A DNA stretch of 64,000 bases from an uncultured Gammaproteobacteria bacterium (GTDB lineage Bacteria; Patescibacteriota; Microgenomatia; PFEM01; JAPLYW01). The stretch spans positions 175,701 through 239,700 of the forward strand of contig OZ246397.1 in assembly GCA_965230945.1 (NCBI GenBank), read 5' to 3'. Positions 22,717-28,926 of this stretch are shown piece after piece (positions within the stretch are counted from its first letter, which is position 1; each line of letters begins with the position of its first letter). The notes under the pieces are model-generated. The model was given only the letters and a program-made list of their open reading frames with translations. It was not told where the DNA came from and did no database searches. The translations under genes were made by a program, and so were the position numbers.

Positions 22717-23712
22717 TTAAGAAGTGTAGCCATTAGGATGAGACTTATGCCACTTCCAAGCAGACTCAATAATAGTTCTTAAATCAGAATATTTAGACTG
22801 CCAACCCAATTCTTTTTTAATCTTTTCTGCCCTGGCAATCAGCTGGCTAGGATCACCAGCTCTACGAGAACCAAAAGGTGAATTAAAATCAATACCACTT
22901 ATCTTCTTAACCATCTTAACCACTTCTAAAACAGAAAAACCTTTACCAGCACCAACATTATAAGCATTAAAGCCATTCTTTCCTTTATCAAAAGATTTCA
23001 AAGCGGCAATATGAGCTTCAGCTAAATCAAGAACATGAATATAATCCCTAATACATGTTCCATCAGGGGTTTGGTAGTCATTACCGAAAATCTTAAATTC
23101 TTTTCTTTTCCCCAAAGCCGCTTGAATAGCTAAAGGAATCAAATGACTTTCTGGTTGATGATCTTCACCCAATGATCCATCTAAAGCAGCCCCACAGGCA
23201 TTAAAATAACGCAAGGCTGCTGAAGATAAACCGCGACATTGGCCATACCACTTTAAAGCTTTTTCTACCATCAATTTCGACTCACCATAAGGATTAGTTG
23301 GCTCTTTGGGATCCCTCTCATCAATGGGAATTTTCTTAGGCTCTCCATAAACAGCCGCTGTTGAAGAAAGAACGAATTTCATTACTTTGTTCTTCATCAT
23401 CATCTTTAAAATATTTAAACTACCCAAGGTATTGTTTAAAAAATACTTTTGGGGATTTTCCATAGATTCGCCCACCAAACTCCAAGCCGCAAAATGAATT
23501 ACCGCTTGAGGTTTTTCCTCTTTAAAAATCTTATCTAATAAAAGGGTGTCTGTTTTGGAGTCGCCAATATAGAGCTTCGTTACTGGGATAGATTGTTTAT
23601 GTCCAGTGCCTAAATTATCAAAAACAATCGGTTCATAACCCGCCTCTTTTAAGGCTCTAACAGTAATACTGCCAATATAACCGGCACCGCCACTAACAAG
23701 AACTTTTATCAT
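22717..23712 (-). CDS. galE: UDP-glucose 4-epimerase
   Basis: MIKVLVSGGAGYIGS Rossmann motif, YxxxK, end-to-end GalE similarity. Start placed at MIKVLV, not at the upstream Met of the ORF track. Confidence 0.85.
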   Translation of the reverse strand: MIKVLVSGGAGYIGSITVRALKEAGYEPIVFDNLGTGHKQSIPVTKLYIGDSKTDTLLLDKIFKEEKPQAVIHFAAWSLVGESMENPQKYFLNNTLGSLNILKMMMKNKVMKFVLSSTAAVYGEPKKIPIDERDPKEPTNPYGESKLMVEKALKWYGQCRGLSSAALRYFNACGAALDGSLGEDHQPESHLIPLAIQAALGKRKEFKIFGNDYQTPDGTCIRDYIHVLDLAEAHIAALKSFDKGKNGFNAYNVGAGKGFSVLEVVKMVKKISGIDFNSPFGSRRAGDPSQLIARAEKIKKELGWQSKYSDLRTIIESAWKWHKSHPNGYTS

Positions 23713-23998
23713 ACTTAGGTGATAATAATTGTCGCTTACCATTAACAGGGATGTCAAGAGCCCAGCCTAAAATATTGGCTACGGAAACCCCCACCCTTAA
23801 ACCAGTAAAAGACCCCGGTCCCAAATTAACTTCGATTTCTTTAATATCCTTAATCGTTTTCTTTTTCTTTTTTAAAACCTTATCAATTAAAACCAATAGC
23901 TTTTGAGATTTATGATCCTTTGTCTCAAACTCATAAATCTGGTCATTTAAACCAACCTTGGTTTTAAAACTATCAGCAGTGTTTATATAAAGTTTCAT
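23693..23998 (-). CDS. tsaB: TsaB (YeaZ)-like N-terminal domain protein, t6A pathway
   Basis: GPGSFTGLRVGVSVANILGWALDIPV motif. Truncated relative to classical TsaB. Confidence 0.55.
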   Translation of the reverse strand: MKLYINTADSFKTKVGLNDQIYEFETKDHKSQKLLVLIDKVLKKKKKTIKDIKEIEVNLGPGSFTGLRVGVSVANILGWALDIPVNGKRQLLSPKYDKSSC

Positions 23999-24429
23999 TT
24001 TTCTTTAATAACAATTTTTCTTTTATTAGGCCCTAAATAACTAAAGAAAATATCAATTCTTTTTTTAGGCAACATCTTTTTAATCTTTCCCGCCCACTCG
24101 ACAACGACAATGGCTTTTTTATCAGCAAACATTTCCTGAAGGCCAAGATGCAAAGCTTCCTTTAATTTTTCAATCCGATACAAATCAATGTGATAAAAAT
24201 TGGCCGCTAAATTCTCTTTTTTGAAAATTGGGTATTCTTTAACAAAGACAAAAGTAGGCGAAATAACTCTTCTTTTTACCCCTAAACCCTTAGCCAAACC
24301 TTGTAAAAAAGTGGTCTTGCCACTGCCTAAATCTCCATAAAGAGCTATTATCTTTTTGGGCTTTAACCTATGCCCCATTTCTTCGCCCAAACTTTGAGTT
24401 TCTCTGGCGTTTTTGGTAATAATCTCCAT
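23995..24429 (-). CDS. tsaE: tRNA threonylcarbamoyladenosine biosynthesis ATPase TsaE
   Basis: [22 protein letters not shown]...[11 protein letters not shown]...HIDLYRIE. Confidence 0.8.
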
Positions 24430-24782: not shown

Positions 24783-25613
24783 TCAATCTTCTTGGTAATG
24801 TTTTAAATTATACCACACCCAAAAGCCGGCAACTAAAAGTAAAACCAACCCTACCACTAAAAAAACCTTAGGTAAAAAATCTAAAGAACTATCCTCCAAT
24901 TCTTCTTCTAAATCAGCACTTTGTGTTGTTTCCAACGGATAAAAACCACCCGATTCTGAAGATTGGTTGCCTAAAATTTCTCCTGAAAGAGTAGCTGAAA
25001 TACTAACTGCCTTAAGTGTTAGTGTTGGAGTAGTTGTCTTTGGGGTAACTGTCGACGTCGGCGTGGGTGTTTTGGTAGATGTTGGTGTCAGTGGCTTTGA
25101 AGTTGGAGAAGGCGATGGGATAGGAGTTGAAGTCGGGGTTGGGGTAGGAGTTGGGCAAAGATCTTCTTGTGCGCCGTTATTAGAAACCCCTTGTGTGTTA
25201 TCGAGAAAACGCACTATAGACGAGCCACCATCTGGAAACCGACCTATAGACCCACTTCCGGTAGGTGTGCATAACCCACCAGCGCTTCCGTATGGCATTT
25301 CTTCTAACAATTCCTCCTTCTCTCCGACTACTCTTATCAGCTTTACTACATCTCCATCATTGTTTAACCAATTTGAAAAAGTAACCACTTGGAATTCCCT
25401 TGCGCCAAGTTCACCCGATAAGTCTTTTTTATTAGAGCTGGTCGAATCCCCTATCCGAAAGCCTGAAAGCTGAGCCGATACCGTTCCTGTATTATAAATT
25501 TCAACCCAATCAGTGGTTGTTCCAGAAGAAAATTCATTAATTACCATTTCTGCCGAAACTTGCTTAGGAAAAATAAAAAAGAAAATTAAAAATAATAATA
25601 ATTTTTTAGTCAT
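24783..25613 (-). CDS. secreted lamin-tail-domain (LTD) protein with Pro/Thr-rich stalk and C-terminal TM anchor
   Basis: Signal peptide, VINEFSSGTTTDWVEIYNTG...GFRIGDS (LTD), about 45 aa of PTPTPTSTP... and a hydrophobic C-terminus. The start is the ATG one codon inside the listed ORF. Confidence 0.55.
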   Translation of the reverse strand: MTKKLLLFLIFFFIFPKQVSAEMVINEFSSGTTTDWVEIYNTGTVSAQLSGFRIGDSTSSNKKDLSGELGAREFQVVTFSNWLNNDGDVVKLIRVVGEKEELLEEMPYGSAGGLCTPTGSGSIGRFPDGGSSIVRFLDNTQGVSNNGAQEDLCPTPTPTPTSTPIPSPSPTSKPLTPTSTKTPTPTSTVTPKTTTPTLTLKAVSISATLSGEILGNQSSESGGFYPLETTQSADLEEELEDSSLDFLPKVFLVVGLVLLLVAGFWVWYNLKHYQED

Positions 25614-25638
25614 CAAAAAAACCGGATTTAATCCGGCT
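25614..25638 (-). terminator. rho-independent terminator after the ftsEX-M23 operon
   Basis: Minus strand CCGGA-TTAAA-TCCGG hairpin plus a U7 run. Nearly identical to the galE terminator. Confidence 0.55.
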
Positions 25639-25674
25639 TGTCTAACAAGAATAATTTATATTATTTATAACATA

Positions 25675-26874
25675 TTATTGTAAATGTAGATAAAGAGTCA
25701 TTTTCCCGTTGGGATGGAAAACACGAACGTTATTACCCATCGACTCCTGTCCCCTATAAAAGTAAGCCTCTCCTTCCTCGATAGCACGAACTAAAACATT
25801 GGCGCTATCAACCATATCCACTCCATGATGAAAATTATATCCTTTATACATCCAAGAATAAGGTGTATGCCCAAAGCATTGCGTAATCCGAGGATTATTC
25901 AATGGCCAATCTTTAGAACCAGAACCAACAGACCTCATTTGACTCGAAGAAATATCGTCACAAGAATACGAATCAAACAAAACTGTTCGGTTAGATAAAT
26001 AGCTAAAAGGATCTAAAACTCTCGAGTAGTAATCAAAACTGTTCGCTTCTGACTCCTTAATTTCATAAACACCAAAATGCAAATGAGGCCCAGTAGAAAA
26101 ACCAGTGTTACCCATCAGGCCAATAACCTCACCTTTATTCACATGTCTCTTTTCGCTAAACTTGGAATTTAAAAGAGCTTGGAGCTCCTTCTGTGCTTCA
26201 TTTAAAAGAGTTTGATATCTTTTTTCGCTATTTTGTGTTACTTCAAGTAGGGAAGCTCTCTCTTGTCGATGCCGATTCAATAAAGCTCTTTGCAATTCCA
26301 ACTTCTTCTTGGCTATCTCTAATTCCTCCTGCTTTTCTTCCTTGAGAGTTTTTTGTTCATCAAAATTTATTCTGACTGTTTCTAGCTGAACCATTAAATT
26401 CCTGTCGTGTAATTGAACAACCTTCAGATATTTATAACGACTAACAAAATTAGAAAATGAATCCGAAGAAAAAAATAAATTAACAATATTAACCCTGCCT
26501 TTTTTATAAGTAGCCACAATCCTCTCTAATAAAATCTCTGACAGTTTATCTAATGAGATATCCAAACGACCAATCTTATCTGATAAATCAGCTATTTCCT
26601 CTTCTAGTTTTTCAATCTGCTTAGTTGTTTGGAAAACCTGGGCGGAAGTAATAGCGATACTGGCATCTATTTGGGTTAATTCCCGTTTTAAAGACTTCGC
26701 TCTCTGACTTGTTTCACTTTTCAAACCACTCCATAAATCGATACACTCGTTTATATGATCCTTCCAACTAGAATCACATTCGGACTCGGTAATCGCCAAA
26801 GAAACACCAAAGAAACAAGTAATAAAAAGAAAAAAAATAAGAAAGGCAGTAAAAAATTTAAGAAGAAACTTCAT
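25675..26874 (-). CDS. coiled-coil M23 (LytM-type) metallopeptidase, EnvC/PcsB-like FtsEX partner; catalytic domain appears circularly permuted
   Basis: Signal/TM, then about 200 aa of heptad-rich sequence. GEVIGLMGNTGFSTGPHLHFGV (the canonical C-terminal M23 motif) then precedes YNFHHGVDM...GNNVRVFHPNGKMTLYLHL (the canonical N-terminal HxxxD half) by about 90 residues. The protein ends right after it. Confidence 0.7.
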   Translation of the reverse strand: MKFLLKFFTAFLIFFLFITCFFGVSLAITESECDSSWKDHINECIDLWSGLKSETSQRAKSLKRELTQIDASIAITSAQVFQTTKQIEKLEEEIADLSDKIGRLDISLDKLSEILLERIVATYKKGRVNIVNLFFSSDSFSNFVSRYKYLKVVQLHDRNLMVQLETVRINFDEQKTLKEEKQEELEIAKKKLELQRALLNRHRQERASLLEVTQNSEKRYQTLLNEAQKELQALLNSKFSEKRHVNKGEVIGLMGNTGFSTGPHLHFGVYEIKESEANSFDYYSRVLDPFSYLSNRTVLFDSYSCDDISSSQMRSVGSGSKDWPLNNPRITQCFGHTPYSWMYKGYNFHHGVDMVDSANVLVRAIEEGEAYFYRGQESMGNNVRVFHPNGKMTLYLHLQ

Positions 26875-26875
26875 T

Positions 26876-27745
26876 CTATTTAAGATAACGTCTAACGGCA
26901 ATTAAACTGCCTAAGGAGCCAATGATAATACCAGCTAAAATTTCAAGGCCCAAAATAATTAACATAAAGATCACCGGTACCGGCAAAATGGGAATTCCTG
27001 TTAAGAACTGAACTACAAAGGGAGTGGCATACAAAAGCAAAATGTAAGATGAGCCCCAAGCTATAACTGCCCCGGTAATTCCATATAAAATCCCTTCTAA
27101 AACAAAAGGGGCTCTAATATAAGAATTTGAGGCTCCGATTAATTGCAGAATTTCAATTTCCGATTTCCTAATGGTAATCTTCATGCCAATAATAACCAAA
27201 ATAACCAAAAGGGAGACCAAGCTTAAAACGCTAATCAAGCCGATGCCCACCTTTCTTATGATTCCGGTCCAGCGATACAACGCTTCAACGACGTCTTCTT
27301 GAAAAACCACCTCTTCAACCATACTTTCACTTCTTAATAGAGCCGCCACCTGCTCTATATCAGTAATGTTGGTAATAGATACCTCTAGTGAAGCTGGCAA
27401 AATATTAGCTGTTACCATTTCCAACAGCAAAGGTTCATCCTTATTCTGTTCTTTATAAATCTGTAAAGCTTCTTCTTTAGAAATATATTTAGTCTCCTTA
27501 ACTCTGTTTGTTTGCGCCAATTTAGCCTTAAGATTATCTATTTGCTGGAGGGTAGCTTCATCTTTGAAAAAAGCAGTTACTTGAGGTCGGCTTTCAAAAT
27601 AACGCAAAACAGTCTGCGAACCCCCAGCAGCCAGCACAAAAACCGTGGCCATAAAAAAAGTCAAAAACATAATCAGCACCGCCGCCAAAGACTGATAAGG
27701 CGAGCGTCTGATATGAGTCCAAGCTATTTTAAAATGTTCTTTCAT
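26876..27745 (-). CDS. ftsX: cell-division ABC transporter permease FtsX
   Basis: N-terminal cytoplasmic segment, one TM, a large periplasmic loop, three C-terminal TMs. Position between ftsE and the M23 gene. Confidence 0.8.
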   Translation of the reverse strand: MKEHFKIAWTHIRRSPYQSLAAVLIMFLTFFMATVFVLAAGGSQTVLRYFESRPQVTAFFKDEATLQQIDNLKAKLAQTNRVKETKYISKEEALQIYKEQNKDEPLLLEMVTANILPASLEVSITNITDIEQVAALLRSESMVEEVVFQEDVVEALYRWTGIIRKVGIGLISVLSLVSLLVILVIIGMKITIRKSEIEILQLIGASNSYIRAPFVLEGILYGITGAVIAWGSSYILLLYATPFVVQFLTGIPILPVPVIFMLIILGLEILAGIIIGSLGSLIAVRRYLK

Positions 27746-28422
27746 GAAATGTGATATTTTCCTTTCTTTTTATCAGAAACTACTTTACCTTTATCCAATT
27801 CAATAACGCGCTTGTTCATTGAATTAACGATTTCGAAATTATGAGTGGCCATAATAACTATTTTACCTGCTTCGTTAACTTTTTCAAAAATACCAACGAT
27901 TTGTCTGGCAATGCCAATATCAAGATTACCAGTCGGTTCATCGGCAATAAGAATATCAGGATCACCGACTACGGCCCTGGCTAAACAAGCCCGCTGCAAT
28001 TCTCCTCCAGATAACTGAGCCGGAAAAAAATCTCTTTTATCTTTAAGACCTGCCAATTCCAGAATACTACTAACACGTTCTTCAATATCCTCTTCCTTCT
28101 CTTTTAATAGTCTCAAAACTAAACCCACATTTTCAAAAACGGTGCGATCAGGCAACAACTTAAAATCTTGAAAAACAACACCAATAGCCTTTCTGTAGTC
28201 AGGAATTTGTTTTTTGCGAAGATCTTGAAGATTTAAACCATTAACGATAATAGTACCTTCCGTAGGTAAATATTCTCTCAAAATCAGCTTCACTAAAGTG
28301 CTTTTACCGGCCCCGGAAGGCCCAATCACAAAGACAAACTCACCCTTACTTATTTCAAAGCTAACTCGGTCAAGGGCAGTTGTCTCACCAAATTTTTTTG
28401 TGACATTATCTAATTTAAGCAT
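27742..28422 (-). CDS. ftsE: cell-division ABC transporter ATPase FtsE
   Basis: GPSGAGKST Walker A, LSGGELQR signature, ILIADEPTGNLD Walker B. Confidence 0.9.
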   Translation of the reverse strand: MLKLDNVTKKFGETTALDRVSFEISKGEFVFVIGPSGAGKSTLVKLILREYLPTEGTIIVNGLNLQDLRKKQIPDYRKAIGVVFQDFKLLPDRTVFENVGLVLRLLKEKEEDIEERVSSILELAGLKDKRDFFPAQLSGGELQRACLARAVVGDPDILIADEPTGNLDIGIARQIVGIFEKVNEAGKIVIMATHNFEIVNSMNKRVIELDKGKVVSDKKKGKYHIS

Positions 28423-28425
28423 TAA

Positions 28426-28926
28426 TTAAATTCCCTCAGGACAAGAATCTAAAACTTTTACCCGACCAATATCCATTAACCAACCCACCTTCTCACTGGA
28501 AAAAGTCTCTCCCCAAACCTGTACACATTTACCTGCAAATTGATTCAGATCTAAAACAGAACTCGTCAGATAAGCAGTCTGGCTAGGACCACCAGGACGA
28601 ATTAATTTATGACTTCCCTCCATAACTTCTCCATTATCATTAACCTCAATTTTTCCTTCAGCCGTATCTTTAAAAACTTTTTCATCTTTAATACCCACTT
28701 CCTTAGGACCCTGAATCATCTCAGCACCACCAATTAACTTTTTAGATTCTGTAACTGCAGTACCTCTCTTAGAAAACAAGTAGCCGGTCAAACTACCGAC
28801 ACCAATAATCAAAAGAATAGCCACAACGGGAATAATAACTTCTTTAAGAATTGGCTTCTTTCTCTTATCTGGAAAATCTTGAACTAGGTTGGGTTCCACT
28901 GTTTGTTTTTGCTCTTCCATACTCAC
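28426..28926 (-). CDS. membrane-anchored hypothetical protein
   Basis: 166 aa with a single N-terminal TM. No recognisable domain. Confidence 0.35.
   Translation of the reverse strand: MSMEEQKQTVEPNLVQDFPDKRKKPILKEVIIPVVAILLIIGVGSLTGYLFSKRGTAVTESKKLIGGAEMIQGPKEVGIKDEKVFKDTAEGKIEVNDNGEVMEGSHKLIRPGGPSQTAYLTSSVLDLNQFAGKCVQVWGETFSSEKVGWLMDIGRVKVLDSCPEGI

Follow-up and report, generated by a model that had tools for sequence, protein, structure and literature searches.

The gene that follows ftsE and ftsX in the stretch of contig OZ246397.1 analyzed here (64,000 nucleotides, hereafter the window) encodes a coiled-coil peptidase whose M23/LytM domain is circularly permuted, so that the half normally found at the C-terminal end comes first and the half normally found at the N-terminal end closes the protein. 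We consider it very likely that this protein is an active, FtsEX-controlled septal peptidoglycan endopeptidase of a bacterium from the Patescibacteria (Microgenomates-like). An earlier note on this DNA had placed the peptidase as the third gene of an ftsE-ftsX-peptidase operon, with a signal or transmembrane segment and a long coiled coil ahead of a clean circular permutation of the M23 domain. These claims hold up: the gene starts 1 base past the ftsX stop codon, and the hydrophobic segment and coiled coil lie at residues 10-36 and 39-245, respectively. Residue numbers follow the 408-amino acid open reading frame (ORF) with a TTG start throughout.

Swapped order of the M23 halves

The Pfam profile Peptidase_M23 (PF01551), which has a curated gathering cut-off of 28.7 bits, matched the whole peptidase with 62.3 bits in two stretches. 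Scanned alone, residues 249-281, which include GPHLH, corresponded to profile positions 58-90 (39.4 bits), and residues 356-408 to profile positions 2-53 (29.3 bits). Both partial matches are above the cut-off and they stand in swapped order, which is the outcome that the earlier note had expected of an hmmscan search. On the chain, GEVIGLMGNTGFSTGPHLHFGV spans residues 257-278, and YNFHHGVDM...GNNVRVFHPNGKMTLYLHLQ-stop makes up residues 354-408. HxH (273-275) is 85 residues ahead of HxxxD (358-362), near the spacing of about 90 first estimated, and the segment then singled out (25675-26200) corresponds to residues 234-408 plus the stop codon. The same order appeared in a phmmer search of the PDB, where residues 329-407 aligned to 238-315 of 6muk and residues 248-277 aligned to 318-348 of 6muk; these are neighbouring segments of the canonical protein that are matched here in reverse order. 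Residues 329-408 also aligned to 219-295 of 3slu, and residues 247-305 aligned to 278-307 of 4rny and 126-154 of 5j1l. Judged from these sequence alignments, the second block is a true homologue of the N-terminal half of M23 and not a chance HHGVD, because it aligns over ~80 residues to several solved M23 structures. The canonical linear order of HxxxD...His...HxH is replaced by HxH (273)...HxxxD (358)...His406-COOH, and the peptidase is therefore a permuted variant homologous to M23 as opposed to a canonical member.

An in-silico un-permuted construct was made by joining residues 328-408 to residues 247-310. This construct gave a single Pfam M23 match spanning profile positions 2-89 with 76.8 bits, as opposed to 64.4 bits in two pieces for the native order. 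With phmmer, the construct produced one alignment to 222-328 of 3slu (E 6.6e-16, compared to 4.2e-9 for the native full-length protein), and 3slu and 6muk were its best matches (62 bits). The junction of the construct, LYLHLQ joined to KFSEKR-HVNKGEVIG, aligns to LYAHLSAFSQAQGNVRGGEVIG of 3slu without a gap at the joint, and the peptidase therefore ends where a normal M23 domain continues into the first block, as had been claimed from the sequence. The cut falls just before RHVNKGEVIG and is exact, with no residue lost or gained at the joint.

The permuted halves were modelled together with high confidence. In the full-length AlphaFold2 (AF2) model (mean predicted local distance difference test, pLDDT, of 90.6) a beta domain at residues 247-407 follows the helices, and a model of the domain by itself formed one compact beta domain (pLDDT 90.5, predicted template modelling score, pTM, 0.88). 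The long connector between the two halves was confidently modelled as a beta-hairpin with strands at 305-309 and 321-325 (pLDDT 95-98). A domain-swapped dimer, in which each C-half is completed by the N-half of a partner chain and the protein works only as an oligomer, is highly improbable in our estimation. Permutants born by duplication can go through swapped intermediates and coiled-coil proteins often oligomerise, but AF2 puts both halves of a single chain into one compact domain, and the connector is both confidently modelled and conserved. Further, EnvC binds the FtsX dimer as a monomer (PMC7668044), and the permuted module is also the terminal domain of an unrelated protein, P0152, which is described below.

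Conservation, distribution and origin of the permutation

The swapped order is not a peculiarity of this contig. HxH precedes HxxxD in all 120 of the best homologues (41-100% identity), nearly all of which have the C-terminal ending ...LY[LWA]H[LM]Q. When the domain alone was searched against 1.84 billion cluster representatives, 42 of the top 147 new representatives shared this C-terminal end, which reaches members that are only 32-40% identical. A search seeded with the relative P0251 brought in a second permuted group, termed short-linker, with ~6 residues from the DPxxYL tail to the WP motif; with a connector this short, the old termini must be close in the fold. Among the 405 proteins fetched, 214 have the permuted order, down to ~30% identity, and 185 of these 214 end exactly 2 residues past the catalytic His. 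The spacing from HxH to HxxxD in the permuted proteins clusters at 47-52 and 82-89 residues. A look at relatives for the same permutation, proposed in the earlier note, thus found it in every one of the best homologues and in over half of the proteins fetched. Named sources of the relatives, from independent assemblies, are Gottesmanbacteria, Microgenomates, Curtissbacteria, Berkelbacteria and "Patescibacteria group"; the name Curtissbacteria was added by a domain-profile (A2) homologue search that gave 23 matches, mostly fragments. The permutation is widespread in Patescibacteria.

These data also bear on whether the swapped order is an artefact, be it from mis-assembly, from a frameshift or from truncation of a tandem M23 gene into a pseudogene. 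The source genome is of metagenome type and a few of the relatives are fragments, but an identical peptidase (P0001) is present on three independently assembled contigs (JGI, Logan, NCBI), the 214 relatives carry the same order and C-terminal end down to ~30% identity, and the catalytic residues are strongly conserved. The gene is also followed by a stop codon and a terminator, with 58 nt to the next gene, and no M23 remnant was found downstream of the peptidase gene in the window. We give an artefact next to no weight; conservation together with the profile scores ruled out an assembly or frameshift artefact, a pseudogene and a chance motif.

Public annotation of the relatives is uneven. JGI labels some of them as "septal ring factor EnvC", and others are annotated as "Peptidase_M23 (weak)"; the permutation explains the weak or split domain annotation of the Patescibacteria relatives. 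Two labels lie outside of Patescibacteria. An 89%-identical C-terminal part of the gene was found at the start of a 7-kb contig (L003, 16-348) from a metagenome-assembled genome labelled "uncultured Gammaproteobacteria", and the relative P0016 carries the label Clostridia. In both cases, a Patescibacteria contig has likely been mis-binned or mislabelled. A tblastn search with the domain against 50,697 phage records returned no match, and a Foldseek search of BFVD found no viral permutant, only half-length matches to cyanophage internal virion M23 proteins (TMq ≤0.5).

The permuted module is not confined to coiled-coil proteins. P0152 (L007 5001-8357 and L008 3196-6552) is an 1118-amino acid protein with an unrelated N-terminal region and the permuted module at residues 977-1118. 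Since the module is found at the end of this unrelated protein, it is a self-sufficient and reused domain. The cluster surrounding P0152 contains six T4SS_pilin genes, PrgI, a TraC-like gene and a VirB4-like ATPase, which resembles a type IV secretion system (T4SS) in a genome like those of the Candidate Phyla Radiation (CPR). P0152 is probably the wall-breaching hydrolase of this T4SS-like apparatus.

As for how the permutation came about, proteins with tandem M23-M23 domains are common, and the segment made of the C-half of the first domain, the linker and the N-half of the second lines up with the permuted domain as a single stretch (residues 126-266 of P0161, for instance, with 35% identity). 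This alignment fits a route of duplication then truncation, and the most likely origin is a tandem duplication of M23 after which the N-half of the first copy and the C-half of the second were lost. The common cut point of the permuted proteins argues for one event. In a neighbour-joining tree and an identity matrix of the un-permuted domains, similarity strings together the long-linker group, a bridging short-linker group and a further group of short-linker type, and the tree did not separate the permuted sequences from canonical domains as one clade.

Active site, gene context and the probable link to FtsEX

In M23 peptidases zinc is bound by the His and Asp of H(x)nD together with the second His of HxH, catalysis involves the first His of HxH and a His ~30 residues upstream (H260 in LytM), and Tyr204 of LytM acts as the oxyanion stabiliser (PMC9662197). 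By homology, the zinc-ligand equivalents in the peptidase are H358, D362 and H275, the catalytic equivalents are H273 and H406, and the oxyanion Tyr equivalent is Y352, which lies six residues before H358 with the same spacing as in LytM. H273, H275, H358, D362, H406 and Y352 are all invariant in an alignment of 66 sequences (homologues of 41-88% identity), and the five His/Asp residues remain invariant when divergent members (32-40% identity) and the T4SS-linked protein are added (28/28). With these six residues kept, the peptidase is predicted to form a normal M23 sandwich, bind zinc and cleave cross-bridges or stem peptides of peptidoglycan, and the permuted domain would be expected to retain the geometry of the zinc site. 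Two cysteines, Cys314 in the connector and Cys342 (ITQC), are likewise invariant across the core family and could be joined by a disulfide.

Conservation of these residues is what separates an active enzyme from a non-catalytic LytM factor with a degenerate M23 domain, like EnvC, NlpD or DipM, the groove of which would activate a separate amidase. The architecture and best structural matches of the peptidase are those of EnvC, and the JGI label of some relatives reads the same way. However, EnvC-type factors are defined by the loss of catalytic or zinc residues (PMC9662197, PMC7668044), and no such loss was found in the peptidase. Invariance of the six residues in the core family, and of the five His/Asp residues in the divergent members, is hard to explain without catalysis, and we find a LytM factor very unlikely.

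The coiled coil and the operon point to FtsEX as the partner of this putative enzyme. The coiled coil is modelled as helices at 39-65, 71-132, 149-222 and 226-245, the last of which leads straight into the peptidase domain, and it matches Pfam CC_PcsB (residues 116-174, E 2.4e-7); the NCBIfam EnvC model matches residues 21-200 (E 4.2e-9). Top Foldseek matches of the full-length model were 8tzl_E (V. cholerae FtsEX-EnvC) and 6tpi_A (EnvC-FtsX), along with 8idc_E and 8jia (M. tuberculosis FtsEX-RipC) and 4cgk (PcsB). A region within the coiled coil (residues 62-120, window 26542-26718) matched PDB 7o97 (E 2.2e-4), an entry for a coiled-coil fragment taken from a hypothetical Candidatus Giovannonibacteria protein; it may be that a relative of the peptidase coiled coil in the CPR has thus been crystallised before, with a different aim.

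In the operon, ftsE and ftsX overlap by 4 nt, and the ATG of the peptidase gene at 26874 gives a product of 399 amino acids plus the stop codon. The mechanical ORF starts at a TTG nine codons before this ATG (26901) and gives 408 amino acids. The ATG is likely the true start, and public gene callers report the same 399-amino acid product. The order prfB, small ORF, ftsE, ftsX and permuted M23 was seen again in relatives with 59%, 45% and 41% identity, and ftsE-ftsX-permuted M23 is kept in L001, L004-L006 and L010. Of these loci, L010 is from a Berkelbacteria genome and its permuted protein is of the short-linker type. A second small M23 protein (199 amino acids, L010 6254-6853) is encoded ~1 kb downstream of the permuted one in this genome.

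Relatives with normal order, which the earlier note had named as evidence that would speak for an assembly rearrangement, were found in Parcubacteria, where the gene context is different. These coiled-coil M23 proteins of canonical order are 24-28% identical to P0251, and their genes are located at L011 1911-3134, L013 4001-5191 and L014 4001-5281 in Parcubacteria-type genomes. In L013 and L014, for which the full upstream context is present, the gene comes after (mraY-)ftsW-murG-gltX and not ftsEX; the L011 locus begins at the contig end, and only gltX is seen upstream. There are relatives of canonical order, then, but they are neither close orthologues of the permuted peptidase nor orthologues by position, and the permutation stands.

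Some observations weigh against an FtsEX-controlled permuted peptidase as we describe it. The link between the peptidase and FtsEX comes only from operon adjacency. In L012 (4001-8898) the gene order is prfB, permuted coiled-coil M23, Exo_endo_phos, ftsE, ftsX and CC_PcsB plus CHAP, which puts a CC_PcsB-CHAP gene directly after ftsX and the permuted M23 gene upstream of ftsE. Additionally, the neighbour-joining tree of un-permuted domains did not recover all of the permuted sequences as one clade. The two coiled-coil hydrolases around one ftsEX in L012 suggest that one FtsEX may serve two partners.

It is also conceivable that the peptidase is an active permuted M23 enzyme that is co-transcribed with ftsEX without being its partner, serving in general wall turnover, for example. 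The coupling is read solely from synteny and an EnvC/PcsB-like coiled coil, the CHAP protein holds the position after ftsX in L012, and the canonical coiled-coil M23 proteins of Parcubacteria are not beside ftsEX. Yet the tight ftsE-ftsX-M23 order with overlapping or abutting codons is kept across distant lineages, the coiled coil matches CC_PcsB, and the best structural neighbours of the full-length model are EnvC and RipC bound to FtsEX. Taken with this evidence, a peptidase unconnected to FtsEX seems quite unlikely to us.

For an FtsEX-controlled peptidase, the following mechanism can be proposed. The protein would be extracytoplasmic, with an N-terminal signal or anchor followed by a coiled coil that docks on the extracellular domains of FtsX and then the C-terminal hydrolase. 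Coming from the coiled coil, the chain enters the M23 domain at the strand that in a normal domain is next after the "YxHL" His, passes the HxH segment on its way to what is usually the C-terminal tail, crosses by way of the new connector to the normal N-terminus, and then runs through the Tyr and HxxxD to end 2 residues past the "YxHL" His. The coiled coil enters at the GD-box-like strand immediately after the catalytic-His strand and not at the canonical N-terminal strand, with His406 placed 2 residues from a free C-terminus. For EnvC, PcsB, RipC and CwlO, it has been proposed that the coiled-coil hydrolase or activator is switched by the ATPase cycle of FtsE (PMC7668044). If EnvC, PcsB and RipC are a guide, the binding and hydrolysis of ATP by FtsE would shift FtsX together with the coiled coil and thereby activate the peptidase at the septum.

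A bolder proposal is that the permutation is itself a direct mechanical gate of FtsEX on catalysis and not neutral rewiring. Through the permutation, the coiled coil would be attached to a strand by the active site instead of to the domain's far side, and FtsEX could seat or unseat either the terminal His406 strand or the first strand, which would differ from the "restraining arm" of EnvC that plugs the groove. If this is the case, the identical cut in all subfamilies and the reuse of the module in the T4SS protein would reflect selection for this geometry. We think such a gate is unlikely, and we favour the FtsEX-controlled endopeptidase described above.

Locus layout and comparison with known systems

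Coordinates of the ftsE-ftsX-M23 unit and of the parts of the peptidase are listed below. The canonical C-terminal half contains the GD-box-like strand VNKGEVIG, GNTGFSTGPHLHF and the DPxxYL tail, and the canonical N-terminal half contains WPL..ITQCFG, Tyr352, HHGVD, GNNVRVFH and LYLHLQ. The hairpin at 25639-25619 marks the end of the ftsE-ftsX-M23 unit, and the next gene 3′ of the peptidase begins at 25616. An Rfam scan of the window found two tRNAs only, neither of which bears on the peptidase gene.

Table 1. Features of the ftsE-ftsX-peptidase unit, in window coordinates.
Feature	Residues	Coordinates	Strand	Evidence or remark
ftsE (ABC ATPase), first operon gene		27742..28422	-	Pfam ABC_tran, E 1.3e-37
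ftsX (FtsX extracellular domain and permease domain)		26876..27745	-	Pfam FtsX_ECD, E 3.4e-19; FtsX, E 5.9e-10
Coiled-coil permuted-M23 peptidase gene, third operon gene		25675..26874 (ATG) or ..26901 (TTG)	-	
N-terminal hydrophobic signal peptide or membrane anchor, MKFLLKFFTAFLIFFLFITCFFGVSLA	10-36	26794..26874	-	modelled helix at 3-30
Antiparallel coiled coil, EnvC/PcsB type	39-245	26167..26787	-	model helices, profiles, Foldseek
Canonical C-terminal M23 half, placed first	247-305	25987..26163	-	Pfam profile 58-90, 39.4 bits
HxH motif, His273-Leu274-His275	273-275	26077..26085	-	invariant in 66/66 and 28/28 aligned sequences
New connector, old C-terminus to old N-terminus	306-328	25918..25986	-	structured beta-hairpin in model
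Canonical N-terminal M23 half, placed last	329-408	25678..25917	-	Pfam profile 2-53, 29.3 bits
HxxxD motif, His358...Asp362	358-362	25816..25830	-	zinc ligands by homology
His406, equivalent of LytM His260 (catalytic His, YxHL strand)	406	25684..25686	-	2 residues before C-terminus
Terminator-like hairpin and T-run after the TAA stop (25675-25677)		25619..25639	-	

Several neighbouring genes were also looked at. Between prfB and ftsE, a 166-amino acid membrane-anchored protein (28426-28926, minus strand) had no significant Pfam family match, and ORFs of similar size (149-198 amino acids) occupy the same gap in L001, L004, L005 and L006. This protein may be an uncharacterised division-associated component. 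Directly 3′ of the M23 gene lies a 277-amino acid protein (24783-25616, minus strand) with a signal peptide, a Pro/Thr-rich spacer and a C-terminal transmembrane anchor, which had a weak Lamin-tail-domain (LTD) match of 29.8 bits, under the cut-off. An ORF of this size is also found 3′ of the M23 gene in L005 and L006, and in L010 an LTD-SNase-LTD protein is encoded nearby. Further along (23693-24429, minus strand) are tsaE (144 amino acids) and then a very short 101-amino acid ORF of the TsaB/TsaD family, which overlaps the start of a UDP-glucose 4-epimerase-like gene. A truncated TsaB-like gene was seen again in L001 and L005.

The M23/LytM domain is among the most studied wall-hydrolase folds (lysostaphin, LytM, EnvC), and, to our knowledge, the division machinery of the CPR is almost unstudied. 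No prior description of a permuted M23 was found in the full-text literature searched, which covers only part of the subscription journals, in agreement with the earlier note, whose author was not aware of such a family. A 2022 review of M23 that analysed ~90,000 family sequences (PMC9662197) makes no mention of permutation, topology or FtsEX in a term search of its text, and the full-text literature searched on FtsEX in Patescibacteria yielded nothing relevant to the permuted peptidase. The peptidase would be of interest to protein-evolution and cell-wall specialists for several reasons. As a natural, ancient and widespread permutant, it indicates that the M23 fold tolerates re-threading 2 residues from the catalytic His, and such tolerance could be useful for engineering lysostaphin-type enzybiotics and biosensors. 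It also offers a natural experiment on force transmission by FtsEX, because the coiled coil is joined at a different point of the same catalytic fold. Lastly, it provides a probable septal hydrolase for a large part of the CPR.

Comparison with known FtsEX partners shows both shared and distinct features. EnvC, as seen in the FtsEX-EnvC systems of E. coli and V. cholerae (6tpi, 8tzl, 8hd0), has the canonical order and a catalytically dead LytM domain, and acts as an amidase activator. The LytM domain of EnvC is without catalytic residues (PMC7668044), whereas the permuted peptidase keeps all of them. In EnvC a "restraining arm" of ~50 residues blocks the groove (PMC7668044), whereas in the permuted peptidase only the 20-residue helix at 226-245 is found ahead of the domain. 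PcsB of S. pneumoniae, RipC of mycobacteria and CwlO of B. subtilis are active hydrolases controlled by FtsEX through a coiled coil. The permuted peptidase is like PcsB and RipC in its CC_PcsB match and in having 8idc/8jia and 4cgk among its top Foldseek matches, but the catalytic domains of PcsB, RipC and CwlO are CHAP or NlpC/P60 cysteine peptidases, as opposed to an M23 metallopeptidase.

Canonical M23B enzymes (LytM, lysostaphin, NMB0315/Mpg (3slu and 6muk), Csd3 (4rny) and ShyA) have the same Tyr, HxxxD, YxHL and HxH. Their order is HxxxD...H...HxH, in contrast to HxH...HxxxD...H-COOH with a new connector between the old termini in the permuted peptidase. Precedent for catalytic residues swapped by circular permutation within a peptidoglycan-peptidase superfamily comes from the permuted NlpC/P60 families (YaeF/poxvirus G6R and LRAT-like; Anantharaman & Aravind 2003, as cited in PMC6403190), which have an unrelated fold and papain-like Cys/His chemistry, unlike the permuted M23. 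In PMC11515920, topologies of the HABAS/barrel-sandwich hybrid superfold, of which M23 is one member, are related by permutation, although the permutations described there relate very distant members of the superfold (NusG, RNAP insertions) and not the M23 family itself. The cut of the peptidase, ahead of RHVNKGEVIG, lies just before the motif discussed in that work. The permuted M23 thus adds a new topological variant to a known enzyme family, within a known type of division system, and is not a new kind of system.

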